Shown here: positions 437-55,438 of the stretch, in pieces
Layout of the letters: the number at the start of each line of letters is the position of its first letter
How positions within the stretch are numbered: the first letter of the stretch is position 1
NCBI GenBank assembly: GCA_022709865.1
Contig: JAKLIA010000003.1
Span: 21,547 to 85,546, forward strand
DNA: 64,000 nucleotides
Direction: 5' to 3'
Source: Patescibacteria group bacterium
GTDB lineage: Bacteria > Patescibacteriota > Minisyncoccia > Portnoybacterales > GWB1-42-6
The notes under the pieces: model-generated
What the model saw: only the letters and a program-made list of their open reading frames with translations
What the model was told of the DNA's origin: nothing
The model's database searches: none
Translations under genes and position numbers: made by a program

Positions 437-1312
437 TTATTGCTTTTTCTTTGCCGATTTAACGATATTTTGGATATAATCGGCAATACGATGTTTAGCT
501 TGCCAGCCAATAGCTTGTGATTTGGTAGCGTCAAGCCGGGCGTCCATGCGGTTTCCTTGGCGTTCCGGAGTCATTTTAATAGGCGCATTAAACATTTGGG
601 CAATCTCAAGGACAGAATAAGATTCATTAGCGCCTAAGCCAAACTCATCACCTTCTCCTTTTTCGCCAATCAATAATAGGCCGTCTACTATATCGTCAAC
701 ATGAGTAAAAATGCGCTTTTGGGTTCCCGGAGAGGTCACAGTTAAGGGCTGCCCAGCTAAGTATTTTTGGCGGAATATCTCTATTAGGGAGCCGTATTTG
801 CCGCTACGTTCACGTGGCCCATAAACATTATAAAAATACGCAATAGCATAAGGAAGATTATACCAATCTCCGTAGTTTCTAATTAATTCAGTATGGGTTG
901 CCTTACTGAAGGCATAAGGACTTTGATCTCTTCCTAACCCGCCGTCGGAAAACTTGGTAGAAGAACCAGCATAAATAAGGCGAATATTTCTTTGCCGGCA
1001 ATATTCAGCTACAGCAAATGTTCCGGCAATGTTCAAATCCCAGACCAGATCAGGTTCGCCAACGCTTTGTTCCACGCGTGAATATTCGCCAAGATGATAA
1101 ACTAGATCCGGCTTTTCTGGAATACGTGAAACAATATCTTTGGTGTGGCCTTGGCGATATTCAACGCCGGGAATATGATTCTCTTTCAGACCCGTAAAAT
1201 AGTTATCTAAGGAAATAACTTTATGGCCTTGCTTGGCTAGTCTGGCGCACAAATTAGAGCCGATAAAACCGGCTCCGCCGGTAACTAAAATAAGTTTAGT
1301 TTTCTTTGGCAT
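437..1312 (-). CDS. NAD-dependent epimerase/dehydratase (UDP-sugar 4-epimerase/decarboxylase-like), 291 aa
   Basis: N-terminal Rossmann motif LVTGGAGFIGSNL and a YxxxK-type region (YAFSKA). The 437-1420 ORF in the track runs into tRNA-Ser; the true start is the MPKKTKL codon at 1312. Confidence 0.8.
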   Translation of the reverse strand: MPKKTKLILVTGGAGFIGSNLCARLAKQGHKVISLDNYFTGLKENHIPGVEYRQGHTKDIVSRIPEKPDLVYHLGEYSRVEQSVGEPDLVWDLNIAGTFAVAEYCRQRNIRLIYAGSSTKFSDGGLGRDQSPYAFSKATHTELIRNYGDWYNLPYAIAYFYNVYGPRERSGKYGSLIEIFRQKYLAGQPLTVTSPGTQKRIFTHVDDIVDGLLLIGEKGEGDEFGLGANESYSVLEIAQMFNAPIKMTPERQGNRMDARLDATKSQAIGWQAKHRIADYIQNIVKSAKKKQ

Positions 1313-1339
1313 AACAAAATAGATTATTCCGATAGAAAG

Positions 1340-1426
1340 CGGAGGGTAGAGGATTTGAACCTCTGAAAGGATTGCTCCTTTACCGCATTTCGAGTGCGGC
1401 GCCTTCGGCCACTCAGCCAACCCTCC
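1340..1426 (-). tRNA. tRNA-Ser (anticodon CGA), type II with long variable arm, no encoded CCA
   Basis: Manual fold: acceptor GGAGGGT/ACCCTCC; anticodon stem CCGCA/TGCGG with loop CTCGAAA; variable arm TAAAGGAGCAATCCTTTC; T-arm AGAGG-TTCAAAT-CCTCT. Confidence 0.8.
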
Positions 1427-3648: not shown

Positions 3649-3721
3649 GCGCCCGTAGCTCAATGGATAGAGTACTTGGCTTCGAACCAAGGGGCTGGGG
3701 GTTCGAATCCCTCCGGGCGCA
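3649..3721 (+). tRNA. tRNA-Arg (anticodon TCG), no CCA
   Basis: Acceptor GCGCCCG/CGGGCGC; D-arm GCTC-AATGGATA-GAGT; anticodon stem CTTGG/CCAAG with loop CTTCGAA; T-arm GGGGG-TTCGAAT-CCCTC. Confidence 0.8.
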
Positions 3722-3733
3722 CACTGTTTATAT

Positions 3734-4378
3734 ATGGAAGGCTTTATAAAAAAGGTTGAGCAAGTTGCCAAACAAAGATTCCAGGGAAACTCTTCTTGCC
3801 ATGACTGGGATCATGTTATCAGGGTCAGGTCTTTAGCCTTAGCCATTGGCAAAAAAGAAAAGGCTAACCTTAAAACTGTTGAAACAGCTGCCTTGCTCCA
3901 TGATATTATGCGGGCCGAAGAAGCTAGAAAAAAGGGAAAGATTTGCCATGCGTTAGCCGGTGCTCAGGAGGCGGAAAAAATACTTCTCAAGCTAGGAGAA
4001 GAGGAAAGTTTTATAAAAGCGGTTAAACATTGCATTGAGGCGCATCGGTACCGGAATAGCCATCAACCCCGATCCATTGAAGCAAAAGTATTGTCCGATG
4101 CCGATAAATTAGACGCTTTGGGCGCTATCGGCGTGGGTCGGGGTTTTATGTGGTGCGGCCATCATGGATTGAACCTGCATAATACCGACCCGAAAATCAT
4201 TAGCCAAAATAATCCGTATGATAAAAAGCATTGCCTTTATGCGGAATACCATATCAAGCTGAAGTTTCTTAAGGATAGAATGTTCACTAGGACGGGCAAA
4301 AAAATAGCGAAAGAACGCAGCGCTTTTATGGCGGAGTTCTTGAAGCGTTTAGACAGTGAGGTTAAAGGAAAATTATGA
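3734..4378 (+). CDS. HD-domain phosphohydrolase, 214 aa
   Basis: H..HD motif (WDHVIRV ... LLHDI) and a second His/Asp cluster characteristic of the HD superfamily. Confidence 0.75.
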   Translation: MEGFIKKVEQVAKQRFQGNSSCHDWDHVIRVRSLALAIGKKEKANLKTVETAALLHDIMRAEEARKKGKICHALAGAQEAEKILLKLGEEESFIKAVKHCIEAHRYRNSHQPRSIEAKVLSDADKLDALGAIGVGRGFMWCGHHGLNLHNTDPKIISQNNPYDKKHCLYAEYHIKLKFLKDRMFTRTGKKIAKERSAFMAEFLKRLDSEVKGKL

Positions 4379-5835
4379 TAATTCCCAGCGAAGTAAAAAA
4401 TATTTTAACTGAATTGCAGAAAGCGGGATTTGAAGCGTTCGCAGTTGGCGGCTGCGTGCGCGATTTGATGCTAGGCAGAAAGCCCAAGGATTGGGATGTG
4501 GCTACCAACGCAACACCCGAGCAGGTGCAAAAAATATTTCCGGCCAGTTTTTATGAAAATAAGTTTGGCACGGTGAGCGTAAAAACCGATTCAGCTAAAG
4601 ATAATTTAAAGATCATAGAGATAACAACTTATCGGGTGGATGCCCCCTATTCGGATAAGCGCCACCCCGACGAAGTCAGTTTCACGCCGAACTTAAAAGA
4701 AGATTTGGCGCGGCGCGATTTCACTATTAATGCCTTAGCTTTGGGCCTGGATAAAAAAATTATAGACCCGTTTGGCGGGCAAGAAGATTTGGCAAAAGGA
4801 TTGATTCGCGCTGTTGGTGAGGCGGAAAAGAGATTCAATGAAGATGCCTTGCGCATGCTGCGGGCTGTCCGTTTTTTTGTGGAACTTGTTTCACCGAGCT
4901 CCGTGAAACAAAGTTTCTCGATCGAAAAGAAAACCCAAGAGGCGATAAAGAAAAACGCTTTGTGGCTCCAGGCAATCGCCAAAGAAAGGATTCGCGATGA
5001 GTTTGAAAAAATAATAATGAGCGAATCTCCTAGCGAAGGAGTTTTATTGCTGCACGAACTTGGGCTGCTTCAATATATTATTCCGGAATTAGAAAAAGGC
5101 TGGGGCGTGGCGCAAAATAAACACCATATATATTCTATTTTTGAACACGGAATATTTTCTTTAAAGTTTGCCGCGCAAAAAAAATATAATTTGGTGGTGC
5201 GCCTAGCGGCGCTGTTGCATGACGTTGCTAAACCCCAGGCCAAGAGGGGAGAGGGGCCGGAAGCAACTTTTTATAACCACGACATTATGGGCGCTCGGGC
5301 AGCGGCGCGGATTTTGGAGAGACTACATTTTAGCAATGAAATTATTGAACGCGTAGCAAATATAATCCGCCATCATATGTTCGTTTATGATGTTGGTGCG
5401 GTGACAGCCGCGGCAGTGCGGCGGCTCTTGGTGCGGGTGGGGCCGGAAAATATTGACGATTTGATCGCTTTGCGCGTGGCGGACAGATTAGGTTCGGGCG
5501 TGCCCAAGGCCCAGCCGTATCGCTTGCGGCACTTTCAATATATGGTAGAGCGGGTGCAGAGCGACCCGATATCCGTGAAGATGTTAAAGATCAATGGCCA
5601 TGATTTAATGTCTACTTTGCAAATTAAGCCCGGCCCGAAAATCGGTGCGATATTAGATGTGCTGTTGGCAGAAGTAATAGAAGAGCCAACTAAAAATACT
5701 AAAGAAAAATTATCGGCTCGCGCCGGAGAATTAGATAAAGAAGATTTGGCGCAATTGCGCCAAATGGCTAAGGCGCGCATCGAAGAAGAAAAAGAGGAAG
5801 AAGACAAAATAATCAAAGGGAGATATTGGGTATAG
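4375..5835 (+). CDS. cca: CCA-adding tRNA nucleotidyltransferase / poly(A) polymerase family with a C-terminal HD domain
   Basis: GGCVRDLMLGRKPKDWDVAT and RRDFTINALA nucleotidyltransferase motifs. The start ATGA overlaps the upstream stop. Consistent with most tRNAs here lacking an encoded CCA. Confidence 0.8.
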   Translation: MIIPSEVKNILTELQKAGFEAFAVGGCVRDLMLGRKPKDWDVATNATPEQVQKIFPASFYENKFGTVSVKTDSAKDNLKIIEITTYRVDAPYSDKRHPDEVSFTPNLKEDLARRDFTINALALGLDKKIIDPFGGQEDLAKGLIRAVGEAEKRFNEDALRMLRAVRFFVELVSPSSVKQSFSIEKKTQEAIKKNALWLQAIAKERIRDEFEKIIMSESPSEGVLLLHELGLLQYIIPELEKGWGVAQNKHHIYSIFEHGIFSLKFAAQKKYNLVVRLAALLHDVAKPQAKRGEGPEATFYNHDIMGARAAARILERLHFSNEIIERVANIIRHHMFVYDVGAVTAAAVRRLLVRVGPENIDDLIALRVADRLGSGVPKAQPYRLRHFQYMVERVQSDPISVKMLKINGHDLMSTLQIKPGPKIGAILDVLLAEVIEEPTKNTKEKLSARAGELDKEDLAQLRQMAKARIEEEKEEEDKIIKGRYWV

Positions 5836-16227: not shown

Positions 16228-18318
16228 ATGAAAAATAAATTATTGATTGCGCTAGCAGCTGTAATTTTAGTTGTGGCCGCGGGTCTGGGCTGGAATTATT
16301 TTAAAAAAAGTTCAGAGCCCTCTTTGGCTGTCAGCTATACAAATGTAAACGTGGCAATAGACAATATCAATAATCGCTTATATGTTGCTGACAATGGTTC
16401 AAATAAAATAGATATATACGATTTAAATACTTTAACGTTGTCTGGCTCAATAATGCTAAATGAGCCTTCAGACGATGCTCTGCGTCTTTATATCGACGAA
16501 AACGAAGGAGTCGCTTTGTTGAACAGCAAATCCAATAGTCAATTTAAAGTTTTGGATTTAAGCACTAAAAAGATCAGATGCCAAATAGAAGTTGGCCAAG
16601 ATAGCGTTGGTTGGATAGACGCAAGAAATAAGCAATTTTTCCAAGCCGCGGCTGCTCAATTTAATTTGTATGATTATAATTGCCAGCAAAAAAAATCAAT
16701 TGCCAAAGATGGCACGATCCTATCTAAGATATCCGAAGCAGGGGAGATAGGCGTTCTCAGAGAAAAAGATTCACGGTTAAGCATTATGGACCTGGTGAGC
16801 GGAAATATTATTGATTCCTTTTATTTATACAGCAATAACTTCACGCTCTTGCCCCAGCATAATATGTTATTGAGCAACGATTGGCTGGTGGTCAATTTTA
16901 ACCGGGGGACAACAACCGATGTTGATTTTTACGATAGGAGCACAAAAATAACTTCTTGGTTTAATACTTCCGGGTCGACGGCTGCCCCTTCTTTAAAGCC
17001 GGTTTATCTGGCAGGCGATCTATACTTTTTGGGCCTGGAAGATAATGGCGAACAGGAGATTATTGTTGTCGATCTACAAAATAAAAATGTTTTGGATAAA
17101 ATTGCTGTCAGCAGCGATACGGTATCTTACGCGGTAGATTCGCTCGGAGAAAATATTTTTATTTTGAATAAATCTGGAAAAATCGAGAAAAAACAAGTGG
17201 CGCCTGTTGATGGGCCGGCGGCAACTACAATAACTAAGCCTCTTAATTTTGGAGTCATGCTTCATCTGGAGGGGCAATTAAGCTTTCCGAACAAAACAGA
17301 ATATCTCCGTGTTAACTCCAATCTTAAGCAGATTATCGACCTGTTTAAAAAATATAATGCAAAAATAACGATTGAGTCAGAGACACCATATATTGAGGCG
17401 GCTAACAAATGGGGAGACAACTTGCTTCTTTATGCTTTAGAAAACGGCCAAGGTGTAGGCACTCACTGCGATTTTGATTCAATGTCCCAAAGCGAAGCGG
17501 CTGCGGCTTATAAAAAGAGGAAAGATGCAATTGATGCAGCGGTTGGCGCGGAAAACAATCTCGGGTGCTCCGGGGGCTGGGGAACACATGATTGGGCCCA
17601 GGCTGCTTTTAGCGCGGGCTTCTCTTATTTGGACGCTCCGATAATGATTGCCTATCTGGCCGTGCCTGAAGAAAATAGGCCGATTAATCCTGATACAGGT
17701 AAGCATTATACTGACGCCGAAATAAGCCCGCAATCCAAATTGTATTACCATGATGTAATTCCTTATGAGCTAAGCGACCGAATCTATCCGAGGCGCCTTA
17801 AAGATACAAATGATTTAACGGGGGATAATTCCGGAATTGTTTTGATTCCCGGTTCTTTAGGCGAGATACCAGCTTTATATGAGGGCCGAAGCACTTGTTA
17901 TCCTAGTTGCGAGTTGACCAATAAAGATATCGATTATATTTTTAATGCTATCGATCAGGTGAACGGTTTTAAGGATGATTCTAAAGTTTCTTCTCTGTAT
18001 CTTCATTTTCCTATAGATACAATAGTGATGCCTTCTTCAAAGAAAGAAGAAAATCTAAAAATTGTAGAAGATTGGTTGAAGCGGATGCAGGAATACCAAA
18101 CTCAAGGAAAAATTAAATGGATGACCATGAAAGAAATATACGAAGAATATTCTGGAACAAAAACGAGCATTAAATCTTGGACTCCTAAGCCAAGCCAAAC
18201 TCCTAGTCTTCGGCCGTCACCTAGCCAATCGCCATCAGTTCAAGGCAAATGCGGCGATGGTGTTTGTGGGCCGATAGAAAAAGCTAATCCGGCTTTATGC
18301 CCGCAGGATTGCAAGTAG
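16228..18318 (+). CDS. Hypothetical secreted/anchored protein, 696 aa: N-terminal signal/TM, YVTN/NHL-like beta-propeller repeats, a central carbohydrate-esterase-like region, a Pro/Ser/Thr linker and a Cys-rich C-terminal tail
   Basis: The YVADNGSNKIDIYD repeat; a PKPSQTPSLRPSPSQSP linker; and the terminal KCGDGVCGPIEKANPALCPQDCK. Confidence 0.55.
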   Translation: MKNKLLIALAAVILVVAAGLGWNYFKKSSEPSLAVSYTNVNVAIDNINNRLYVADNGSNKIDIYDLNTLTLSGSIMLNEPSDDALRLYIDENEGVALLNSKSNSQFKVLDLSTKKIRCQIEVGQDSVGWIDARNKQFFQAAAAQFNLYDYNCQQKKSIAKDGTILSKISEAGEIGVLREKDSRLSIMDLVSGNIIDSFYLYSNNFTLLPQHNMLLSNDWLVVNFNRGTTTDVDFYDRSTKITSWFNTSGSTAAPSLKPVYLAGDLYFLGLEDNGEQEIIVVDLQNKNVLDKIAVSSDTVSYAVDSLGENIFILNKSGKIEKKQVAPVDGPAATTITKPLNFGVMLHLEGQLSFPNKTEYLRVNSNLKQIIDLFKKYNAKITIESETPYIEAANKWGDNLLLYALENGQGVGTHCDFDSMSQSEAAAAYKKRKDAIDAAVGAENNLGCSGGWGTHDWAQAAFSAGFSYLDAPIMIAYLAVPEENRPINPDTGKHYTDAEISPQSKLYYHDVIPYELSDRIYPRRLKDTNDLTGDNSGIVLIPGSLGEIPALYEGRSTCYPSCELTNKDIDYIFNAIDQVNGFKDDSKVSSLYLHFPIDTIVMPSSKKEENLKIVEDWLKRMQEYQTQGKIKWMTMKEIYEEYSGTKTSIKSWTPKPSQTPSLRPSPSQSPSVQGKCGDGVCGPIEKANPALCPQDCK

Positions 18319-22353: not shown

Positions 22354-22520
22354 TTTTAAGCCTCCTTTTAGGTATATTTTTGTTAAATGACTATAAACAT
22401 AATATACCAATTTTGGTCATTTGTCAATATCTATAGTCTGGATTTTTTTGCAGCAAAACTTTAAATAAAAAGCAGTCCGAACGGTTGAAAAAAAAGCAAG
22501 GAAGGGGTAGAGTAAATATT

Positions 22521-25118
22521 ATGAAATATGACCACAAAAAGATAGAAAAAAAGTGGCAGAAATATTGGGCTGAAAATCCCAAACTCTTCGCGGCGGATGA
22601 TAAATCTGATAAGCCCAAACAATATATCTTGGATATGTTCCCGTATCCTTCGGGCGACGGGCTGCACACCGGCCATGTGGAAAGCTATACCGCCACGGAT
22701 ATAATCTCGCGTTATTTGCGGATGAGCGGCTTTAATGTTTTGCACCCGCAGGGTTTTGATGCTTTTGGTTTGCCCGCGGAAAACTATGCCATTAAAACCA
22801 AGATTCATCCGGCCGAAACCACTAAGAAAGCCATCACCAATTTTAAGAAGCAGATGAATATGATGGGTTTCTCTTATGATTGGTCGCGGGAAGTTATATC
22901 GGCCGATCCGGAATATTATAAATGGACCCAATGGTTTTTCTTGCTGCTCTATAAAAACGGTTTAGCCTTTAAATCAAAAGGAAAAGTTAATTGGTGCGAT
23001 TCTTGCCAAACGGTGCTCGCCAACGAGCAAGCTGAAGGGGGAGTGTGCGATAGATGCGGCAAGCCGGTGAGGCAAAAGGATTTAGAGCAGTGGTATTTTA
23101 AAATTACAGATTTTATAGAGGATACCGGCAAAACTTCTGGTTTATTGTCGGGCTTAGATAAAATTGACTGGCCCGAATCAACCAAGGCTGGGCAGCGCAA
23201 TTGGATCGGGAAATCCGAAGGCGCACAATTTAAAATGGAAATTGTTACAAAAGATTCTGTCATTCTGAGCCCAAAGGGCGAAGAATCTAAAAGATCCTTC
23301 GTTAACACTCAGGACGACAAATTGCATTTGTCGGTTTTCACCACTCGCTTAGACACGGTTTTTGGCATGACTTTTGCGCTGATTGCGCCGGAGCATAAAT
23401 TAGTTCAAGAATTAAAATCAAAAATTACCAATTGGAGCGAAGTAGAAAAATATATAGTTGAAACCAAAAAGAAATCTGAACTTCAGCGCATGGCGGAGGT
23501 GAAAGAAAAAACCGGCGTGGAGCTAGAAGGCATTAAAGTTTTAAATCCTTTCACTAAAAAAACTATTCCGCTTTTTGCCAGCGATTTTGTGCTGGCGCAC
23601 TATGGCACGGGTGCTGTTATGGCAGTGCCGGCGCATGATGAGCGGGATTTTGCCTTTGCCAAGAAGTTTGGTTTGCCGATAGACGAAGTGGTAAAAAGCG
23701 TGGACGGCAAATCATCTGTTGCCAAAGAAGCCTACACGGAAGACGGCGTTTTGATAAACTCTGGCGAGCATAACGGCTTAACTTCCGCTGAAGCTAGAAA
23801 AAAATTAACCCAATGGCTCCAAAAAGAAAAAATCGGGCAGGGCACGATAAATTATAAACTCCGTGATTGGCTGGTTTCCCGCCAGCGCTATTGGGGCGCG
23901 CCAATTCCCATTATCTATTGTGATAAATGTGGTGAGGTGCCGGTGCCAGAAAAAGATCTGCCGGTTTTATTGCCCAACGATGTTGATTTTATGCCGACGG
24001 GCGAATCGCCCTTAGCGATTTCCAAAAAGTTCCATGATATAAAATGCCCAAAGTGCGGCGCTAAAGCTCGCCGGGAATCTGATACCATGGACACCTTTGT
24101 TTGTTCTTCTTGGTATTATTTGCGTTATGCCGATAGCCAAAACGACAAAGAGTTTGCTTCCAAGGAAATGCTAAAAAAATGGTTACCGGTTGACTTATAC
24201 GTTGGGGGAGCGGAACACACGGTTTTACATCTTTTGTATTCGCGATTTTTTACCAAGGTTTTGCATAAGCTTGGTTATATAGATTTTGACGAGCCATTTT
24301 CCAAAATGCGGCACCAAGGAATAATTCTAGCGCCGGACGGCCGGAAAATGTCCAAGTCTTGGGGCAATATTATCAATCCCGACGATGTGGTCGCCGAATA
24401 TGGCGCTGATGCCTTGCGCTTGTATGAAATGTTTATGGGGCCGCTGGAAGAAATGAAACCTTGGAATACCAAGGGGATTGTTGGAGTAAAAAGATTTTTA
24501 GACAAAACATGGAATTATCTTTCCGCAGATTATACGGGCATATTCATAGATAATAATGATCGGAATCAATGGATAGAAGGTAAGATAGATGGAGCTACTT
24601 CGCGTGAGACAGAAGTTTTATTGCATAAAACAATAAAAAAGGTTTCTGAGGATATTGAAAGTTTGAAGTTTAATACGGCAATTAGTCAGTTGATGGTATT
24701 GAGAAACTCTTTTTATGAAATAGAAGCGAAACGACCAATATCAGAAAAATCTTATATTGAACCAATAAAGGGGCAGCGTATAAAGAAATCTGATTTTGAA
24801 AAATTTATTATTCTTCTTGCTCCATTTGCTCCTTTTATAGCTGAGGAGATCTGGCAAGGAGTGTTAAAACATAAGGGAAGTATCTTCAATGAGGAATGGC
24901 CCAAATATAATAAAGACTTAGTTAACGACGAAACCATACAGATGCCGATTCAAATCAATGGCAAAGTCCGCGCTGTGCTAGCCGCATCAGCAACTATTTC
25001 AGAAGAAGATGCCAAAAAACTTGCTTTATCCGATTCTAACGTTATCAAATGGTTAGAAGGCAAAGAGCCTAAAAAAGTTATTTTTGTGAAAGGAAGATTG
25101 GTTAATATTGTGGTATAA
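22521..25118 (+). CDS. leuS: Leucine--tRNA ligase
   Basis: HTGH (HIGH) and KMSKS motifs and a CP1 editing domain. The start is taken at MKYDHKK, preceded by the AAGGAAGGGG ribosome-binding site. Confidence 0.9.
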   Translation: MKYDHKKIEKKWQKYWAENPKLFAADDKSDKPKQYILDMFPYPSGDGLHTGHVESYTATDIISRYLRMSGFNVLHPQGFDAFGLPAENYAIKTKIHPAETTKKAITNFKKQMNMMGFSYDWSREVISADPEYYKWTQWFFLLLYKNGLAFKSKGKVNWCDSCQTVLANEQAEGGVCDRCGKPVRQKDLEQWYFKITDFIEDTGKTSGLLSGLDKIDWPESTKAGQRNWIGKSEGAQFKMEIVTKDSVILSPKGEESKRSFVNTQDDKLHLSVFTTRLDTVFGMTFALIAPEHKLVQELKSKITNWSEVEKYIVETKKKSELQRMAEVKEKTGVELEGIKVLNPFTKKTIPLFASDFVLAHYGTGAVMAVPAHDERDFAFAKKFGLPIDEVVKSVDGKSSVAKEAYTEDGVLINSGEHNGLTSAEARKKLTQWLQKEKIGQGTINYKLRDWLVSRQRYWGAPIPIIYCDKCGEVPVPEKDLPVLLPNDVDFMPTGESPLAISKKFHDIKCPKCGAKARRESDTMDTFVCSSWYYLRYADSQNDKEFASKEMLKKWLPVDLYVGGAEHTVLHLLYSRFFTKVLHKLGYIDFDEPFSKMRHQGIILAPDGRKMSKSWGNIINPDDVVAEYGADALRLYEMFMGPLEEMKPWNTKGIVGVKRFLDKTWNYLSADYTGIFIDNNDRNQWIEGKIDGATSRETEVLLHKTIKKVSEDIESLKFNTAISQLMVLRNSFYEIEAKRPISEKSYIEPIKGQRIKKSDFEKFIILLAPFAPFIAEEIWQGVLKHKGSIFNEEWPKYNKDLVNDETIQMPIQINGKVRAVLAASATISEEDAKKLALSDSNVIKWLEGKEPKKVIFVKGRLVNIVV

Positions 25119-25830
25119 GTTTTTAATGATAGATAAATTAGAACAGGAAGCTCTAGACTTTATAAAGAAGAAGGAGAACTATAAGAAAATTATAGAGCGT
25201 TTTGCTGGAAAAGACTTTATTTCGGAGGGACTACCAATTTCTTTGTTTATGGCTGGTTCTCCTGGAGCGGGAAAAACAGAAATATCAAAAAGGCTTGTAG
25301 AGACTTTTGAAGTGGATCGAAAGGCAAGAATAGTTAGAATTGACCCAGACGAGATTAGGGAGCTGTTGCCAGGATACAACGGAAATAATTCGAATTTATT
25401 TCAAGGGGCTTGTTCTGTTGGCGTAGAAAAAATACATGATTATGTATTGTCTGCTGATAAAAGCTTTCTTTTAGATGGAACATTTTCTAATTATGAAAGA
25501 GCAAAAAATAATATAGAAAGATCTCTAAACAAAAGAAGGTTTGTGACACTAGTATATGTGTATCAAGATCCTCTGATAGCGTGGGAATTAACAAAAAAAA
25601 GAGAAGCGCTAGATGGAAGATTTGTGCCTAAAGAGGCATTTATAAGACATTTTTTTGGGGCAAGAGACACTGTTAATAAAATAAAGGCTGAGTTTGGTAA
25701 TGCAATACAGGCACATCTGATAGAAAGAAATATGCATTCCCCTGATTATAAGATTCAATTAAATATTAAAAATGTTGACGATTTTGTAGAGATAAAATAT
25801 ACTGAAGACACGCTAAAAACAAGCATATGA
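25108..25830 (+). CDS. Zeta-toxin/AAA_33-like P-loop kinase, 240 aa
   Basis: Walker A motif GSPGAGKTE in a zeta-toxin-like context. The start overlaps the leuS stop. The local sequence is AT-rich relative to its flanks. Confidence 0.5.
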   Translation: MWYKFLMIDKLEQEALDFIKKKENYKKIIERFAGKDFISEGLPISLFMAGSPGAGKTEISKRLVETFEVDRKARIVRIDPDEIRELLPGYNGNNSNLFQGACSVGVEKIHDYVLSADKSFLLDGTFSNYERAKNNIERSLNKRRFVTLVYVYQDPLIAWELTKKREALDGRFVPKEAFIRHFFGARDTVNKIKAEFGNAIQAHLIERNMHSPDYKIQLNIKNVDDFVEIKYTEDTLKTSI

Positions 25831-39877: not shown

Positions 39878-39953
39878 TGGAGCGGGCGAGCAGAATCGGA
39901 CTGCCGTCTCGACCTTGGCAAGGTCGCATAATAGCCACTATACGACGCCCGCA
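39878..39953 (-). tRNA. tRNA-Gly (anticodon GCC), CCA encoded
   Basis: Acceptor GCGGGCG/CGCCCGC; anticodon stem CGACC/GGTCG with loop TTGCCAA. Confidence 0.8.
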
Positions 39954-40203: not shown

Positions 40204-40289
40204 TGGTGCGCGGGAGAGGATTTGAACCTCCAAGCCTTGCGGCACCAGCACCTCAAGCTGGCGTGTTTACCGGGTTTCACCACCCGCGC
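40204..40289 (-). tRNA. tRNA-Leu (anticodon GAG), type II, CCA encoded
   Basis: Acceptor GCGCGGG/CCCGCGC; anticodon stem CCAGC/GCTGG with loop TTGAGGT; long variable arm. Confidence 0.8.
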
Positions 40290-41722: not shown

Positions 41723-42499
41723 TTATTTGGGTTTTTTTTCTCGCCACCTGTCCCATTGGTCAAGAAGTTCAATGGCGCCTTTTGCGTAGGCGTTGGCCTT
41801 AGCAATATCTAAGTCGTCTTGTTTGTCGCGCAGGGCGCCTTCCGCATCCAGGCTGACCTTAGGAAAGCAATAATAAGGCATCCTGATTATCGGAAGCAAT
41901 TCGGCTTTTAATCCGCCGGCCACTCCAATGCCGATATCATAACCTTCAAGCTCCTTAATGCACTGCTGGTAAAAAGAGAAATTGGCCACAGCTCCTTTCC
42001 CGCCGCTGGAATCAAGCAAAATGCCGTCGATCGCTTCGGCCCGGATATACTTTTTTATTTCGTCCGCTATTTTCCATGGGTCGCGCTTAACTTTTTCCAT
42101 GGCGTTTGACCCGACCTGCAGGACTATTTTTTGTCCCGGGAAAGTTTCTTTAAAAAGCGCTAATTGGTCGATCTTTGGCCAGGCAATATTGAGCTGAATG
42201 CCCTGTATATTGAAACCGGCAATATCCATTAGGAATGTTAATTGGTTTATTAAAGGCTTTGGTTCGTCTGTGCTGTAGTGAATTAAATTAATGACTCGAG
42301 GGTCTTGAAAAAAAATATCTTTAATTTTTTCTATCTTTGGGTATCTCCCCGGATATTTATTTTGCTGGCCATTCAAAGTTTTTGAGCTGGCTAGCACCCC
42401 AACCATTAATTTGCGTTTTGAGCCTTTGGAAAAAGACCGTAAAACATCTTTAACTTCTTGCCTGCCCATAAAGCCGGTAATGCCAATGTAAGAATCCAT
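41723..42499 (-). CDS. Phosphoribosylanthranilate isomerase-like (TrpF family) TIM-barrel protein
   Basis: IGITGF, LLDSSGGKGAVANFSF and GVAGGL motifs parallel the TrpF segments KICGLT, LDNGQGGSGQRFDWSL and LAGGL. No other trp genes are in the window. Confidence 0.5.
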   Translation of the reverse strand: MDSYIGITGFMGRQEVKDVLRSFSKGSKRKLMVGVLASSKTLNGQQNKYPGRYPKIEKIKDIFFQDPRVINLIHYSTDEPKPLINQLTFLMDIAGFNIQGIQLNIAWPKIDQLALFKETFPGQKIVLQVGSNAMEKVKRDPWKIADEIKKYIRAEAIDGILLDSSGGKGAVANFSFYQQCIKELEGYDIGIGVAGGLKAELLPIIRMPYYCFPKVSLDAEGALRDKQDDLDIAKANAYAKGAIELLDQWDRWREKKPK

Positions 42500-42531
42500 T
42501 TTTTCCCTCCTTGTTTTTTTGTAAGAACTTT

Positions 42532-42608
42532 TGGTGGGCGTGCCCCGACTCGAACGGGGGACCTTTTCGATGTCAACGAAACGCTCTAACCAGCTGAGCT
42601 ACACGCCC
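42532..42608 (-). tRNA. tRNA-Val (anticodon GAC), CCA encoded
   Basis: Acceptor GGGCGTG/CACGCCC; anticodon loop TTGACAT. Confidence 0.8.
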
Positions 42609-42654
42609 GAATAAGTCATCTTAAGGAAAGGTTAAGATGACAGACTAACATATT

Positions 42655-42966
42655 TTACTTCAATAATACCAGGGTTATCATCGCAATCGCTACAAAAACC
42701 GCCAGCCACCCGATAGTATAAGCCAATAATTTTACAGCCGCTTCTTTTTGATTTTCCAGATAAAGCATAATTGGCTTGCCCAGAACCAACGCGCCGGTAA
42801 TAGTTGCCGAGAGAACTAAAAGCAACAGCATTAATATCGGCATCAAAAAATTATCTTCTGCGCCAAATAATTTATTGGCGTTAGAAAAAAACAAAGCGAT
42901 GGCGACGATATAAATAAAGACACCAAGCGAGTTAAGCAGGGAGCGGACGGACAATTTGTTTTTCAT
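42655..42966 (-). CDS. Small hypothetical membrane protein (103 aa, 3 TM helices)
   Basis: ORF with a hydrophobic profile. Confidence 0.4.
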   Translation of the reverse strand: MKNKLSVRSLLNSLGVFIYIVAIALFFSNANKLFGAEDNFLMPILMLLLLVLSATITGALVLGKPIMLYLENQKEAAVKLLAYTIGWLAVFVAIAMITLVLLK

Positions 42967-42987
42967 GAATTATATTTTAAAAATTAG

Positions 42988-43059
42988 TGCGCGCGCTAGG
43001 ATTCGAACCTAGAACCAGTCGTGTATAAGACGACTGCTCTACCGTTGAGCTACGCGCGC
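42988..43059 (-). tRNA. tRNA-Ile with anticodon UAU (TAT), no CCA
   Basis: Acceptor GCGCGCG/CGCGCGC; D-arm GCTC-AACGGTA-GAGC; perfect 5-bp anticodon stem GTCGT/ACGAC with loop CTTATAC; T-arm CTAGG-TTCGAAT-CCTAG. Confidence 0.7.
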
Positions 43060-43089
43060 GGAAGCCCTTTTTAGGGGGCTGGAATAAGA

Positions 43090-44919
43090 TTAGCTTTTCA
43101 TTAACGCTTCAAACTCCTCTTTTTCAATCGTTTCTTTTTCTATCAGGCGGTTGGCAATTTTATCCAATAAAGCTCGTTTTTCTGTGAGTATCTTTTGGGC
43201 GGCCTTGGCGGCGTTATCGATAAAATCAAAAACTTCTTTGTCGATATCTTGCGCCACTTTTTCCGAGTAATTCTTTTCGGTGGTTATTTCTTTGCCCAAA
43301 AATACCATATCTTCCGTTTCGCCGAAAGTCCGCGGGCCAAGCTTATCCGACATTCCATATCTCATAACTAATCTTCTAGCAAGGTCCGTGGTTTTTTCCA
43401 GGTCATTGCCCGCTCCGGTGGTAATCTCGTTGAAGACTACTTTTTCCGCATAGTAGCCGCCAAGCAACACCGAGAGCTCTTCAACGAACTCTGTTTTGCT
43501 GTGCAAATGTTTATCAAACTCTGGTAATTTTAAAGTGTAGCCGGCAGCCTGGCCTCGCGCAATAATGGAAACTTTGCGGACCGGGTCGGTGTGGGGGAGA
43601 GAGGCGGCCACCAAAGCATGGCCGGCTTCATGATACGCCGCAATTTTCTTTTCATCGGTGGAAAGAATATGGCTCTTTCTTTCCGGGCCCAACAGGACTT
43701 TTTCAATAGAAGATATCAGGTCTATCATTTCCACTTCCTTTTTATTTTGCCGAGCCGCGGCAATAGCTGCTTCGTTAACTAGATTGGCTAGGTCCGCGCC
43801 CGAAAATCCGGGTGTGCGCTCAGCCAGCTGCCTTAAATTAACGTCAGCTGTGACAGGCTTATTTTTAGCATGGATCTTTAATATCTCTTCGCGGTCGTTG
43901 ATATCAGGCAGGTCCAACATTACTCGGCGGTCAAAACGGCCCGGCCGCAAAAGAGCGGTATCAAGAATATCGGGCCGATTGGTGGCGGCCAAAACCACCA
44001 CTCCGCTGTTTGGTTCAAAGCCGTCCATTTCGACTAATATTTGGTTCAGGGTTTGTTCTCTTTCGTCGTGTCCGCCGCCCAGCCCTGCGCCCCGCTGCCG
44101 GCCGATGGCATCCAGCTCATCGATAAAAATTATGCAAGGGCTGTTTTTCTTAGCGGTTTGGAATAAGTCGCGGGTTCGCGCGCTGCCCACGCCAACGAAA
44201 AGCTCAACGAACTCGGAACCGGAAATATGGAAGAAGGGGACTTTGGCTTCGCCGGAAACCGCGCGCGCCAACAATGTTTTGCCGCAGCCCGGAGGCCCGA
44301 TAAGCAAAACTCCCTTGGGAATCTTAGCTCCGATAGCAATAAACTTTTCCGGGCTCTTTAAGAAATCAACTACTTCGTCCAACTCTTGTTTAGCTTCCTT
44401 TAAGCCGGCCACATCAGCAAAGCTGGATTGTTGTTTTTTATCTTCCGGCATAATGATGCGCGCCAAAGATTTGGTAAAACCAAAGCCCTGCCCGCCAGCG
44501 CCTTGCTTGGCTTGGCGCATCATGAACCAAAGGAATAATCCCATGATCAAAAGCGGCAAAAGGAAGGGGACAATAACATTGCCTAGCCAATATTTCCAGC
44601 CGCTAGCTTGCTCAACTGTAATTGCTACTTTTTGGAGTTTGGTTGTGTCTACGCCGTAATTTTTCAAGGACTCGGTTAGGCCCGATTCCGCTTCTTTTGT
44701 TGCCACTTCGCTGGTCTCGTCTTTTAAGAAGACTTCTAGGCTTTGGTCTTTAACAGTTATTTTATTTACTTTTTCATCGTTGATCTGCTGGGCTAGTTCC
44801 GTTAAAGAGATTTCGGCTGGGCTTTTTCCAGAAGAGCTGAACATGGAAAAAATACCCGAGACCAGGATGAATAGAATTAAAATGATAAGGAAGTTTTTTA
44901 ATAATCCTTTCATAGCCAT
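43090..44919 (-). CDS. ftsH: ATP-dependent zinc metalloprotease FtsH
   Basis: Walker [12 protein letters not shown] region, and HEAGHA zinc motif. Confidence 0.9.
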
Positions 44920-45007: not shown

Positions 45008-46174
45008 TTATTCAGTTTTTTTAGTTTCGTTTTCCGCGGCTTCTTCTTTGGTTTTGCTTTCAGGCCGCACGAGCGACAGGGCCATTTTGTGGGCGCTAGG
45101 TTCAATGGAAACTATTTTGAATTGGTATTTTTTGCCAACCTCTAATTCCTTGTTCATGTTTTCCAGCGAGCCAAAATCGGAAATATGCACCAAACCGTGG
45201 ATATCTTTGTCTATTTGGGCAAAAGCGCCGAACGGATTGATCTTGGTGATCTCTCCTTTAATAACTTGGTCTTTGGTATATTTGCCTTCGATTTCCTGCC
45301 AAGGGTCTTTTTTCAAAGCCTTGAGGGAGAGGGACAAGCGGTCTTTTTCAATGCCAATAATTTTAGCAGTGACTTTTTGCTCCGCGTGCAAGATCTGGCG
45401 CGGGTCTTCGATCAATTGCCAATCAATTTCAGAGATATGAATTAAGCCTTCGATCATCTCTGGTTTTTCTTGGTTGTCTGAGCCCTTAAGAGGGAAGCGC
45501 ACGAAAGCGCCAAAGTCGACAACGCCGGAAATGGTGCCTTCAACCAAGTCGCCGATCTGGTATTGCGATAGGGCTTGGCGGACTTTTTCTTCACCGACCG
45601 CTTTTTCGGAAACGATCAATTTTTGCTGGCTCGGATCCACATCCAAAACCCGCACGGACATTTCCTTATTAACAAACTTATTCAATTCCTGCAGGATCTT
45701 ATTTTTATCGCCGTCTTCTACCCGAGGATAATGGTCATGTGATAATTGGGAAACCGGCAAAAATCCGACTACGCCGCCAAGTTCGATCATTAGCCCGCCG
45801 CGGTTAGCCGCGGTTATTTTGGCCTTGACTATTTCTTGGGTGGCGGACATATTTTTGAGAACATCCCATGATTGTTCCCGGTGAGCTGCTTGCAAAGAAA
45901 GCTCAACGAAACCGTTTTCATTCTCGGTTTCCAGCACCATGGCGGAAATCTCGTCTCCCGGCTTTAAGCTTTTTATTAGGTTGCGGTTTTCTTTTATCTC
46001 CCGGCCAAAAAGCACGCCTGTGCCGGCTGCTCCCAAATCAATAAAAACTGTGTCGCGGCCGACTTCCAAAATGTGGCCGTTCACGATTTCTCCTAATTTC
46101 GGGGTTTTGGGGGATTGGGCTAAAAGCCCGGTCATCAAGCCTTTTTTAGGCTCGGCTGTTGGTTTAGCTGTCAT
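45008..46174 (-). CDS. rpsA: 30S ribosomal protein S1 (four S1-domain form)
   Basis: Repeated S1 OB-fold motifs (GxV.G.V..I...G.FV). Confidence 0.8.
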   Translation of the reverse strand: MTAKPTAEPKKGLMTGLLAQSPKTPKLGEIVNGHILEVGRDTVFIDLGAAGTGVLFGREIKENRNLIKSLKPGDEISAMVLETENENGFVELSLQAAHREQSWDVLKNMSATQEIVKAKITAANRGGLMIELGGVVGFLPVSQLSHDHYPRVEDGDKNKILQELNKFVNKEMSVRVLDVDPSQQKLIVSEKAVGEEKVRQALSQYQIGDLVEGTISGVVDFGAFVRFPLKGSDNQEKPEMIEGLIHISEIDWQLIEDPRQILHAEQKVTAKIIGIEKDRLSLSLKALKKDPWQEIEGKYTKDQVIKGEITKINPFGAFAQIDKDIHGLVHISDFGSLENMNKELEVGKKYQFKIVSIEPSAHKMALSLVRPESKTKEEAAENETKKTE

Positions 46175-51921: not shown

Positions 51922-52329
51922 ATGAATAAAAATATTTTCAAAAAAATATTAGTTCCGTGCTTGGTTATCGGTTTTGCTTTTTTTGTTATCTGGCCGGTTG
52001 AAGCGGCTGGCCTTTTGCCTAATTGCCGGGCAGCCTCTTGCACCCCTTGCCATTTCTTGCAATTGATCAGTAATGTGTTGCTTTTTGTGGTTAAAAATAT
52101 AGTCGCGCCGCTGGCTGGACTGCTTTTTTTGATAGGTGGTATAATGATGGTATCAGCAGGCGGATCGGAAGAGCGGTTTAAAAAAGGTAAAGAGATGTTC
52201 AAAAATGTGGCGATCGGCGTTCTAATAATTTTGGCTTCTTGGGCTATAGTGAACACTCTAATCACAACTTTTGGCACCAGCGTTGACGGGTTTGTTCCCG
52301 GCAATTGGTGGAGAGTTAATTGTTTATAA
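51922..52329 (+). CDS. VirB2/TrbC-like pilin paralog 1 (signal peptide plus two hydrophobic helices separated by a short charged loop)
   Basis: Signal peptide cleavage VEA|AG; helix-1 LISNVLLFVVKNIVAPLAGLLFLIGGIMMVSAG; loop GSEERFKKGKEM; helix-2 FKNVAIGVLIILASWAIVNTLI. Confidence 0.5.
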   Translation: MNKNIFKKILVPCLVIGFAFFVIWPVEAAGLLPNCRAASCTPCHFLQLISNVLLFVVKNIVAPLAGLLFLIGGIMMVSAGGSEERFKKGKEMFKNVAIGVLIILASWAIVNTLITTFGTSVDGFVPGNWWRVNCL

Positions 52330-52334
52330 AAACA

Positions 52335-53261
52335 ATGCAATTAAAATCTTATAAAACATTTTTTTTCGCGTTTTTGATAATCGGCGGTTTTTTATTCTGG
52401 GGCAGCGTTGGCCAAAAGGCGTTGGCTGCTAATTGCACTTGCGCTAATGGCAAAGATTTCACCACCCTTACCCAATCTGCGATAACCGAATACGGCAATT
52501 TGGGCGCTGCTTGCGAAATGTATTGCGCAGCCAGCGGCGGTGCCAAGATAAATGATGAGTATATCAACTCTACAGATCCTTGCGGCGGGTGTAATGACCC
52601 TGGTTTTTATTGCAACACAAGCACGGGTAGATGTGAATATGATGGTAGTCAATCTTATGATCCGACAGATCCAGAGGCAAGTAATTTGCCCAATTCGGAT
52701 TATGACCCAACTTCTTCTTCCAATTCTTCTCAAAAAAGCTCTTCTGGCGGCGGTAGCGCTTCCTTGCCAAACTTTGTCGGGGTGAGCAGCATCAGCGAAC
52801 TAATCTTAAAGATTACAAAGTTTTTGATTGCTCTAGCTATTCCTTTTGCTGTATTGATGCTTATTTGGGCGGGCTTCCAATTTGCAACTGCTCAAGGAAG
52901 CGAAGAAAAGCTTAGGACAGCAAAAAGAAATCTTGTTTGGACAATAGCAGGCATCGCGGTCATTATGGCGAGCAACGCGATCATTGGATATATTACCGAG
53001 ATCTTAGGCGGCGGCACGGGAGAAGGCAATGCGCTAATCACTACGATTAAAAATGTTCTGGACCAAATAATCGGCTTGCTGTTTATTTTGGTGACAGTAT
53101 TCTTTTTCTGGGGGATTGTGGAGTTCGTGCGGGCAAGTTCTAGCGGCGACACAGGCAAATTGGAAGAAGGCAAGAGGCATATGATCTGGGGAATCATCGG
53201 TATGGCAGTTATGGCTGGCGCTTGGGGAATCGTGAGAATAATCCAACAAGCATTCCAATAG
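52335..53261 (+). CDS. Secreted Cys-rich protein fused to two tandem VirB2/TrbC-like pilin modules
   Basis: Signal peptide ALA|ANC; N-terminal domain with 12 Cys; two modules homologous to the flanking small pilin genes. The start is taken at the ATG at 52335. Confidence 0.5.
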   Translation: MQLKSYKTFFFAFLIIGGFLFWGSVGQKALAANCTCANGKDFTTLTQSAITEYGNLGAACEMYCAASGGAKINDEYINSTDPCGGCNDPGFYCNTSTGRCEYDGSQSYDPTDPEASNLPNSDYDPTSSSNSSQKSSSGGGSASLPNFVGVSSISELILKITKFLIALAIPFAVLMLIWAGFQFATAQGSEEKLRTAKRNLVWTIAGIAVIMASNAIIGYITEILGGGTGEGNALITTIKNVLDQIIGLLFILVTVFFFWGIVEFVRASSSGDTGKLEEGKRHMIWGIIGMAVMAGAWGIVRIIQQAFQ

Positions 53262-53324
53262 AGGCTAGGAAATTATTATAAATAAAAATCCGTATGAAAT
53301 GCGGCTTGAAAGGAGGTGAGCAGG

Positions 53325-53684
53325 ATGAAAAAATTTAATGATATATTTGAAAAGGTAGCAGTTGTTGCCTTGAGCTTGATTTTTCCGACGATGGTTTTGG
53401 CAGCCGATATCAACAGCACCATAACCAGAATAACAGATATATTGAACATGGTTATCGGATTGCTCTTCGTTTTGGTTACCTTGTATTTTGTTTGGGGTAT
53501 CGTTCAGTATGTTATGGCAGCTGGCGACGAGGGCAAGATTAAGGACGGCAAACAGCATATGATCTGGGGAATCATCGGTATGGCAGTTATGGCTGGCGCT
53601 TGGGGAATCGTGAGAATAATCACTTCAACTTTTCTTTCAGGAAACAGCACCGGTATTCCAACGGGAGTAGGCAGCGGATTATAA
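53325..53684 (+). CDS. VirB2/TrbC-like pilin paralog 3
   Basis: Ribosome-binding site AAAGGAGG 9 nt upstream; signal peptide VLA|AD. It shares an identical 22-aa (67-nt) segment HMIWGIIGMAVMAGAWGIVRII with the preceding gene. Confidence 0.5.
   Translation: MKKFNDIFEKVAVVALSLIFPTMVLAADINSTITRITDILNMVIGLLFVLVTLYFVWGIVQYVMAAGDEGKIKDGKQHMIWGIIGMAVMAGAWGIVRIITSTFLSGNSTGIPTGVGSGL
53556..53622 (+). repeat. 67-bp perfect direct repeat (a copy of 53177-53243) spanning the 3' regions of two adjacent pilin-like genes
   Basis: The two segments match exactly by direct comparison. Confidence 0.8.
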
Positions 53685-53766: not shown

Positions 53767-54843
53767 CTATTTTTTGCCTAAGGTTTCATCCAATAGGCAA
53801 ACCGTTTTTGAAGCGACCGGAAGGCTTTGCCCTGGCTCTGCGTAGATATAGAGCTGGTATCCTTCCTGGCGGTGCTTGTTGGTGGCGCAATACTGCTTTT
53901 TGTCTGTTGGCCAGGGGTGCGATTTAATTTCGCCGCCCAGATCAACAAAGAACTTTGGCGGCGGGCCATCCAGGCTTTCTCTCTCCATGCAAACTCGATC
54001 GTTTAGCATGACGGTGGCTACGAATTTTGCCTCGGAAGGTATTTGAATCTGTTTTGTGACCGGCTCTGGGTTTTTTGATACAACAGGAGCGGCGATGGTT
54101 TCTTTTTTATCACCGGCATTGCCGCCAAGTGAAACTAATTTTGCTTGTACTTCAGGAAGAATTATAATCGTGATGACTATAATTAAAATAACTGAGCCCG
54201 AGACTCTTAGAAACCCCAAAATCTTTGTTGGGATTTTTGGGATAAGGCTCAGCCCCCAAAAGACAAGGCCAAGAATAAACAATCTTACTGTCCAGCTGCT
54301 AAGAAAAAAACTAATCTTTTCCGGCGTTAATCCGAAAATGTCGGTTTTGAACCAACCGGCGATGCCGGCTATTGCCAGAATGAAAAGAATCGCCGCAGCC
54401 AACCAAACATAAACCCTGTAAAACCTTATCCAAGCAGTTTCCTTATTAGCCAAGTTTGCGGTGGTAAAAATGCCAACCAGGACAATCGGGAGAATAAATG
54501 TTGCGGCCCAAAACTTCCAAATTGGAAATAAAGAAAAGAAGATCACGGTCGTGCTGCCTAAAAAAAAGAAAACATTAAGCGCTCGCGTGAACTCTGTTCC
54601 AATCTCTTCTTTTAAAAGTTTGGCTAAGAACAAGGAGTCAACCGCTATCCCGCCTAGATGCCAAATAGTTGCAGCTGTGGCCAAAACCCAGAGGACTCCA
54701 ATGATTGGTAATGCCGGATGCATAACTTCTTGCGTTAGGCCGGCTATCGCCAACATAACTACAAAAAGCAACAACCAGTCCCAAACCAACACAGAGACTC
54801 CAAGTTTTATATTCTTTCTGAACAAGTTAATCATAGCCCACAT
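53767..54843 (-). CDS. Polytopic membrane protein (6-7 TM helices) with a C-terminal extracytoplasmic Cys-containing domain; possible VirB6/TrbL-like protein
   Basis: Hydrophobicity pattern; positioned convergently to the pilin cluster. Confidence 0.45.
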   Translation of the reverse strand: MWAMINLFRKNIKLGVSVLVWDWLLLFVVMLAIAGLTQEVMHPALPIIGVLWVLATAATIWHLGGIAVDSLFLAKLLKEEIGTEFTRALNVFFFLGSTTVIFFSLFPIWKFWAATFILPIVLVGIFTTANLANKETAWIRFYRVYVWLAAAILFILAIAGIAGWFKTDIFGLTPEKISFFLSSWTVRLFILGLVFWGLSLIPKIPTKILGFLRVSGSVILIIVITIIILPEVQAKLVSLGGNAGDKKETIAAPVVSKNPEPVTKQIQIPSEAKFVATVMLNDRVCMERESLDGPPPKFFVDLGGEIKSHPWPTDKKQYCATNKHRQEGYQLYIYAEPGQSLPVASKTVCLLDETLGKK

Positions 54844-54855
54844 AATCGTTCCTCC

Positions 54856-55404
54856 TTATCGGAATAAGATGTCAGCTAAACGGCTGACGAAGTGTTTTTC
54901 TTTGTGTTCTTCTGCATAAAGCTCTAAACTCTTGTTCGTGGCGCCGACAGTATAAGCTATTTGCAGCGCCACTTTTTCAAGAGCATTGCCCATGTGCTCT
55001 AATTCGTGCTCCAATTGGTGGGTAAGAGAAGAATGAGATAATGCTTCAAATAATTGATCAAGCACCTCAGGGTTCGCTTTAGCTATCTGAGCCATAACGA
55101 CTCTGGCCTCATTAGTATCCAAAGACCCGTCGTCTTTTAAAGGTAGGGCAGCAGAAATTGTCATAACCATTTCTTTCATTCTGCCTTCTTCTTTGGCTTT
55201 TTTGAGTAGATAACGAAAAGATTCTGCATCTTCCGGTTCGAGCATCAGTATGGCCCTCATAAAACTTGCCTGGGGCGGATGCTTAATGAAGCTTTGTATT
55301 TTTTCTCCCATAATTCCTGTCCCTTGAGACATAAAGGTTTTTAGAACTCGGGTAACAATTTGGTCTACTGCTCCACCTAAAAATATGTCTTTAATGCGTC
55401 CCAT
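54856..55404 (-). CDS. Hypothetical 182-aa protein
   Basis: ORF only. Confidence 0.4.
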   Translation of the reverse strand: MGRIKDIFLGGAVDQIVTRVLKTFMSQGTGIMGEKIQSFIKHPPQASFMRAILMLEPEDAESFRYLLKKAKEEGRMKEMVMTISAALPLKDDGSLDTNEARVVMAQIAKANPEVLDQLFEALSHSSLTHQLEHELEHMGNALEKVALQIAYTVGATNKSLELYAEEHKEKHFVSRLADILFR

Positions 55405-55438
55405 ATTTTCTCCTTTTTGATTTTTTTATTTTGTCTTT

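Follow-up and report, generated by a model that had tools for sequence, protein, structure and literature searches.

The 64-kb window (the whole stretch of DNA analysed here) encodes a tRNA-Ile gene whose UAU anticodon is written directly in the DNA, and this gene probably yields a functional tRNA that reads AUA as isoleucine without the lysidine made by TilS, as a conserved trait of the lineage. The tRNA is most likely the main AUA decoder, and possibly the sole one, and would allow the genomes that carry it to use AUA as an ordinary codon. The kind of decoder is already known, being that of Mycoplasma mobile; what is new here is that the gene is conserved, linked to ftsH, found in many species of one lineage, and associated with unbiased usage of AUA.

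Nowhere else in the bacterial code than at AUA/AUG do two amino acids differ by a single wobble base, and nearly all bacteria rely on an essential enzyme, TilS, to keep them apart. To our knowledge, an encoded UAU anticodon has been described only from scattered species. In fact, the tRNAscan-SE 2.0 survey listed this rare tRNA-Ile in just 17 bacterial genomes (PMC8450103), and earlier work reported nine species that lack tilS and carry tRNA-Ile(UAU) (Taniguchi 2013; PMC3575796). There are no members of the CPR among the 17 bacterial genomes of the published surveys, and a literature search found no paper linking tilS, lysidine or tRNA-Ile(TAT) with Patescibacteria or CPR.

The gene occupies positions 42988–43059 on the minus strand, a placement supported by ARAGORN, Rfam and covariation, and it spans 72 nt to the discriminator base A73, with no encoded CCA. 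ARAGORN, run on the 64-kb window, called a tRNA-Ile with anticodon tat at 42987–43059 of the minus strand, while the Rfam model RF00005 matched 42988–43059 (minus strand) over its full length (model positions 1–71 of 71) with 73.9 bits and E=2.6e-14, where the gathering threshold is 29 bits; this was the top Rfam score among the 15 tRNAs of the window. Read on its own strand, the sequence is GCGCGCG-UA-GCUC-AACGGUA-GAGC-A-GUCGU-CUUAUAC-ACGAC-UGGUU-CUAGG-UUCGAAU-CCUAG-CGCGCGC-A, with an acceptor stem of 7 bp made of G and C only, a D stem of 4 bp with G18 and G19 present, a variable loop of 5 nt, and a standard T arm (GGUUCGAAUCC). The anticodon stem-loop, GUCGU-CUUAUAC-ACGAC, lies at 43018–43034 (minus strand), with U34, A35 and U36 running from 43027 down to 43025, and its loop of 7 nt, compared below in 41 sequences, contains U33, A37 at the t6A-type position, and C at position 38. 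A preliminary description made from the letters of the DNA had proposed a tRNA-Ile with an encoded UAU anticodon on the basis of this arm, without naming a strand. The arm matches exactly on the minus strand, ARAGORN and Rfam bear out the assignment, and the tRNA caller suggested there as a check returned the same anticodon and cloverleaf.

The conserved upstream neighbour of the tRNA is ftsH (43090–44919, minus strand; 609 aa; Pfam Peptidase_M41, AAA and FtsH_ext), and its stop codon is separated from the tRNA by a spacer of 30 nt (43060–43089, minus strand). A promoter and terminator scan of this spacer found no promoter-like or terminator-like sites, so that co-transcription with ftsH followed by processing is the simplest reading. 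The tRNA would thus probably share a transcript with ftsH and be excised from it, the expected work of RNase P and a 3′ nuclease. Since the gene encodes no CCA, a CCA-adding enzyme would be needed to complete the 3′ end, and one is encoded at 4375–5835 on the plus strand (Pfam PolyA_pol and tRNA_NucTran2_2; NCBIfam CCA tRNA nucleotidyltransferase). As a point of comparison, a 3′ CCA is encoded by the genes for tRNA-Val(GAC), tRNA-Leu(GAG) and tRNA-Gly(GCC) (42532–42608, 40204–40289 and 39878–39952), and not by most of the others. The modification t6A37 is expected on tRNAs that read ANN codons, and the window encodes tsaD, a subunit of the t6A37 machinery (59849–61045, minus strand; NCBIfam TIGR03723, 365 bits against a cutoff of 296). 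The TsaD complex would most likely act on this tRNA and supply the t6A at A37, and IleRS would then charge the tRNA with isoleucine. The genes around the tRNA are housekeeping genes, and Tgt, MetRS, LeuRS and GlyRS are also encoded in the window.

The window matches metagenome contigs of 88–102 kb from several assemblies, its proteins bear the NCBI name Candidatus Portnoybacteria bacterium, and the nearest species genomes by FtsH identity stand at 91%, 76% (Parcubacteria GW2011_GWB1_42_6) and 70% (Candidatus Portnoybacteria, which sits in the Parcubacteria group of the Patescibacteria group). When loci from 80 Patescibacteria species were retrieved through FtsH with flanks of 10 kb, a tRNA-Ile(TAT) was found within 10 kb of ftsH in 40 of the 80, and in 25 it follows ftsH on the same strand at a distance of less than 1 kb. 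Portnoy-, Giovannoni-, Taylor-, Kaiser- and Nomurabacteria, Paceibacterota and Minisyncoccia are among the named carriers, while Uhrbacteria and Falkowbacteria are among the named non-carriers at the ftsH locus; in 5 of the 40 loci counted as non-carriers, the downstream sequence is too short to judge. The rarity that the preliminary description had ascribed to an encoded UAU anticodon therefore stands for surveyed bacteria at large, with their 17 genomes and nine tilS-less species, but does not stand within this lineage, where the gene is linked to ftsH in at least half of the 80 species. The ftsH-linked tRNA-Ile(UAU) is an old, conserved trait of Parcubacteria-type lineages and not a one-off.

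The arrangement on the other side of ftsH also varies among these loci. In the window, the gene upstream of ftsH is rpsA, encoding ribosomal protein S1 (45008–46174, minus strand; four Pfam S1 domains). This gene was found upstream of ftsH in 31 of the 40 loci that lack the linked tRNA and in 3 of the 40 carriers, and those three include the closest relatives of the window. Many carrier loci have instead a tmRNA gene within a few kb of ftsH.

An alignment of 41 tRNA-Ile(UAU) sequences, with a mean pairwise identity of about 71%, was used to follow the cloverleaf through this divergence. Across its stems 99.7% of cells were paired, and in 17 of the 21 pairs changes had occurred on both sides; the covariation score of 0.755 compares with 0.188 in shuffles and with at most 0.14 when partners were slid, and none of 500 shuffles reached the observed score. 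The call is thus no chance match, because compensatory substitutions preserve the cloverleaf in 40 orthologues from other species. All 41 tRNAs share C32-U33-U34-A35-U36-A37, A73 and the U12-A23 pair, and position 38 is a pyrimidine throughout (C in 38, U in 3). The one tRNA-Ile(GAU) that was recovered has the canonical loop CUGAUAA, unlike CUUAUAC. Judged from sequence, then, this is a real, functional tRNA gene that strong selection maintains and whose anticodon is fixed.

In its usage, AUA behaves as a normal isoleucine codon. Among 60 ORFs of the window, ATA makes up 28% of isoleucine codons and 22.4 per 1000 of all codons, a frequency above that of ATG, and each of the 14 housekeeping genes examined for it contains it, rpsA, rplS, tig and HU among them. 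The examination of AUA usage proposed in the preliminary description thus shows a codon that is used freely and that, as described below, aligns with I, V and L in orthologues. Loci with the ftsH-linked gene have a mean ATA share of isoleucine codons of 27% versus 13% in the others, an effect that persists with GC as a covariate (+0.12, t=5.0), and for the ratio of observed ATA to that expected from four-fold A3 usage, carriers have a median of 0.89 and non-carriers one of 0.35, with strong avoidance (a ratio below 0.5) in 4 of 38 carrier loci versus 18 of 33 non-carrier loci; these contrasts are confounded by phylogeny, and a locus with no TAT gene near ftsH is not the same as a genome with none. 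Five relatives within the Parcubacteria (loci L044, L061, L035, L068 and L008; 34–42% GC) even have ATA as the majority isoleucine codon, at 51–65% of isoleucine codons and 42–54 per 1000, up to 2.8 times the prediction from general third-position A usage.

The foremost alternative is that the tRNA is an accessory decoder, adding to the AUA-reading capacity of a genome that also has TilS and tRNA-Ile2(CAU). The two systems do co-occur in some bacteria, namely Lactobacillus casei, Lactobacillus plantarum, Cyanothece and Ferrimonas, where an encoded tRNA-Ile(UAU) like that of the window is redundant with the lysidine system (PMC3575796). Searches for TilS were made with a motif scan, with tblastn using E. 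coli TilS, and with an HMM built from the TilS of three species. The motif scan found no SGGxDS PP-loop motif, nor a PP-loop protein of any kind, among the ORFs of the window, and TilS was absent from the window, from flanks of about 17 kb gained on the source contigs (L083/L084 and L086), and from the 80 related loci, which together hold 1.36 Mb and 8043 ORFs, or about 1–2 genome equivalents. Three PP-loop ORFs in the related loci were rejected as candidates: one is ThiI, one is SHMT and the third is spurious. No CAT anticodon occurred among the tRNAs of the window or of the fetched related loci, which are a partial sample of each genome. The pair of tilS and a CAU-type tRNA-Ile2, named in the preliminary description as a refuting condition, thus did not turn up in this sample. 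Nor was ileS found in the window, the flanks or the 1.36 Mb of related loci, the last of which were searched by tblastn with E. coli IleS. The arrangement tilS-hpt upstream of ftsH is common in Firmicutes and Actinobacteria, at the position that rpsA takes in the window; a tilS adjoining ftsH was thus rejected for the window, and tilS-hpt was found upstream of ftsH in 0 of the 80 loci. A database-wide search with a TilS profile returned only Enterobacteria and Aquificae among the 120 matches listed, all of them near the query species. Structure models of TilS had a pLDDT of 47 when made from a single sequence and of 94 when based on an alignment.

Because the sample amounts to about 1–2 genome equivalents, the failure to find TilS in 1.36 Mb carries little statistical weight, and searches of this extent leave some room for an accessory role. 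TilS is moreover close to universal in bacteria, and the tRNA set of the window is not minimal, its many C34 and G34 isoacceptors indicating that redundancy is tolerated. Against this, the tRNA persists among deeply diverged species with its anticodon unchanged, genomes with the ftsH-linked gene show no avoidance of AUA, neither TilS nor a tRNA with a CAU anticodon came to light in the related DNA, and a redundant pair of enzyme and tRNA would be less likely to be kept in small genomes. An accessory role is therefore a possible but tentative reading, and the tRNA as main decoder of AUA is the one pursued here.

On the ribosome, U34 of the tRNA would pair with the A of AUA and so deliver isoleucine with no conversion of C34 to lysidine by TilS, as extrapolated from published systems. 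Work with M. mobile and with B. subtilis lacking tilS has shown that tRNA-Ile(UAU) with an unmodified U34 reads AUA much better than AUG (PMC3575796, PMC3919564). Since the U34 is unmodified in both of the bacterial tRNA-Ile(UAU) that have been analysed chemically, that is also its most likely state here. If M. mobile and the B. subtilis suppressor are a guide, misreading of AUG would most likely be avoided through the weak binding of AUG by unmodified U34, and it is conceivable that the invariant loop context of C32 and a pyrimidine at 38 tunes the reading of AUA against AUG, although this is speculation.

Another way that AUA specificity could conceivably arise is through modification of U34 itself, either of the xm5U type or to pseudouridine, as in the PsiAPsi anticodon of eukaryotic tRNA-Ile. 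Almost all tRNAs carry a modification at U34 (PMC3919564), an enzyme could recognise its target by the invariant loop, and 1.3 kb downstream of the tRNA there is a gene for an RluA-family pseudouridine synthase. This gene is, however, linked to the tRNA in only 2 of 40 loci, those of the two closest relatives, so that a dedicated modification enzyme nearby finds no support, and a search across the tRNA-Ile(UAU) loci found no conserved neighbouring modification gene. Two ORFs of unknown family just downstream of the tRNA (41723–42966, minus strand; 103 and 258 aa) are without recognisable homologues in the 80 related loci, and were likewise set aside as U34 modifiers for want of tRNA linkage beyond the closest relatives. 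Together with the unmodified U34 of the two tRNAs analysed chemically (PMC3575796, PMC3919564), this makes a modified U34 the less likely state, and an unmodified U34 is retained in the proposed mechanism. The consequences drawn in the preliminary description, altered AUA/AUG discrimination or a dedicated modification of U34, are accordingly conjectural.

A further alternative is that the tRNA does not accept isoleucine at all, either because AUA has been reassigned (for example to methionine, as in mitochondria) or because the tRNA is charged with lysine or another amino acid. The meaning of AUA was examined on an alignment of 81 FtsH orthologues. When a column holds ATA in one species, the residue in the other species is I in 46%, V in 18%, L in 17% and M in 3%; this profile is the same as that of ATT and ATC and unlike that of ATG, from which it follows that AUA has its standard meaning of isoleucine. 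The invariant A73, U12-A23 and A37 (the last compatible with t6A) of the 41 sequences also fit isoleucine identity, as do the invariant A35 and U36. The identity element A38 of E. coli IleRS is replaced by a pyrimidine in these tRNAs, a departure from the canonical base that speaks for another acceptor identity, and the backbone is about equally similar to tRNA-Lys and tRNA-Ile. Within the lineage, isoleucine was not singled out by similarity (0.67 to Lys-CUU, 0.62 to Ile-GAU and 0.61 to Val), and BLAST against E. coli tRNAs gave weak matches of about 78% to tRNA-Lys and tRNA-Asn; neither comparison was discriminating, and assignment of the isotype by similarity was dropped. The predicted isoleucine identity rests instead on the anticodon, A37, A73, U12-A23 and the meaning of AUA, and with the FtsH profile showing so little methionine, a tRNA that carries another amino acid is very improbable. 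The cloverleaf, the anticodon and the meaning of AUA place the gene among tRNA-Ile(UAU) genes. Finally, the gene might be a pseudogene, a tRNA-like sequence arisen by chance, or a recent arrival from a mobile element or a phage, phages being frequent carriers of tRNAs for rare codons. This reading is refuted by the conserved chromosomal position near ftsH in 40 species and by stems maintained through compensatory change, the top Rfam score in the window and the housekeeping genes around it pointing the same way, and the chance of it is negligible.

The wider tRNA set of the window has features of its own. A tRNA-Arg(UCG) is encoded at 3649–3722 (plus strand), and also at 3894–3966 of locus L069, while a tRNA-Arg(GCG) occurs at 884–956 of locus L043. 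In most bacteria, CGU, CGC and CGA are read by a tRNA-Arg(ACG) that TadA edits to ICG, and arginine tRNAs with UCG or GCG have been described in Mollicutes as the pattern that goes with a lack of TadA. Also encoded in the window are a number of isoacceptors beginning with C34 or G34, including Ala GGC and CGC, Pro CGG, Ser CGA, Leu GAG (with UAG) and Val GAC (with UAC). Taken together with tRNA-Ile(UAU), these arginine tRNAs and isoacceptors suggest a predicted decoding system built on directly encoded anticodons and not on the editing of wobble bases.

The window has several other features of note. A zeta-toxin family gene (25108–25830, plus strand; Pfam Zeta_toxin, E=1.4e-35) starts within the last codons of leuS (22485–25118), and no obvious epsilon-type antitoxin was identified beside it. 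Three clustered T4SS-pilin/TrbC-like genes, typical of Patescibacteria, adjoin a gene for a solute-binding protein (51922–53684, plus strand). The longest ORF for an NAD-dependent epimerase (437–1420, minus strand; TTG start at 1420) overlaps the tRNA-Ser(CGA) gene (1339–1426, minus strand) by about 80 nt; its true start is probably further downstream, since one public gene call is a shorter version of 291 aa. ORFs of 696, 358, 182, 245, 518, 258 and 103 aa had no match in Pfam or NCBIfam; they lie at 16228–18318 (plus strand), 53767–56176 (minus strand) and 61858–63414 (plus strand) and in the minus-strand stretch downstream of the tRNA already mentioned (41723–42966). Some 5.6 kb beyond the right-hand end of the window (L083, from 17712 onward), a giant gene of about 3800 codons with a Peptidase_S74 domain runs off the end of the source contigs.

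For the window alone, the outcome is a correct and useful annotation with no new mechanism. The wider proposition, for which the chances are about even, is that much of the Parcubacteria-type Patescibacteria, perhaps thousands of species, has dropped TilS and lysidine in favour of an ftsH-linked tRNA-Ile(UAU) with a fixed loop of C32 and a pyrimidine at 38, thereby freeing AUA. If this is true, AUA would have become an ordinary isoleucine codon, which in some genomes makes up most isoleucine codons (up to 65%), TilS would be dispensable across a major branch of bacterial diversity, and no other natural case of AUA decoding by U34 would come near this lineage in size. There would be practical consequences as well. 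TilS (TIGR02432) is one of the bac120 marker genes, and its systematic absence would affect phylogenomic marker sets and estimates of genome completeness. The divergent tRNA, IleRS and 16S sequences of these species would also allow a comparative test of how U34 avoids AUG, and would provide a data set on the co-evolution of IleRS, tRNA loop and ribosome that keeps AUA and AUG apart.

Among known systems, one parallel is found in the Archaea, where the tRNA-Ile3(UAU) of Nanoarchaeum equitans and Korarchaeum cryptofilum, both small-genome or symbiotic organisms, has replaced a decoder with a modified C34 (PMC8450103); the system replaced there was agmatidine and TiaS, not lysidine and TilS. Bacterial parallels are Bifidobacterium, Neorickettsia and Candidatus Spiroplasma holothuricola, which also encode UAU directly and in whose genomes the tRNA replaces tRNA-Ile2(CAU) (PMC3575796, PMC8450103, PMC5861454). 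The absence of tilS has been established in these three from complete genomes, whereas here TilS was looked for and not found in about 1–2 genome equivalents, and Bifidobacterium and Neorickettsia have an IleRS of the eukaryote type. S. holothuricola has been read as relying on directly encoded anticodons over wobble modification, a view in keeping with the C34/G34-rich set and the tRNA-Arg(UCG) of the window.

The suppressor of a tilS deletion in B. subtilis, a G34U form of tRNA-Ile1, shows that an unmodified U34 can support normal growth while binding AUA strongly and AUG weakly (PMC3919564). That tRNA is a laboratory mutant of tRNA-Ile1(GAU) and keeps A38, whereas the natural gene described here has the conserved loop of C32 and a pyrimidine at 38. 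The nearest counterpart is the tRNA-Ile2(UAU) of M. mobile, which shares the encoded UAU, A37 and a reduced host genome, and which reads AUA as isoleucine without lysidine, as is proposed here too (PMC3575796). In M. mobile, the absence of tilS, the unmodified U34, an adapted IleRS (Arg865) and a ribosome-dependent rejection of AUG have been demonstrated (PMC3575796), while the present tRNA is known from its sequence. Arg865 corresponds to W905 of E. coli IleRS; Arg or Lys at this position, or an IleRS2 of the eukaryote type, would mark an enzyme adapted to U34. M. mobile is, however, an isolated case in its genus, and the gene described here is linked to ftsH and common to many species.
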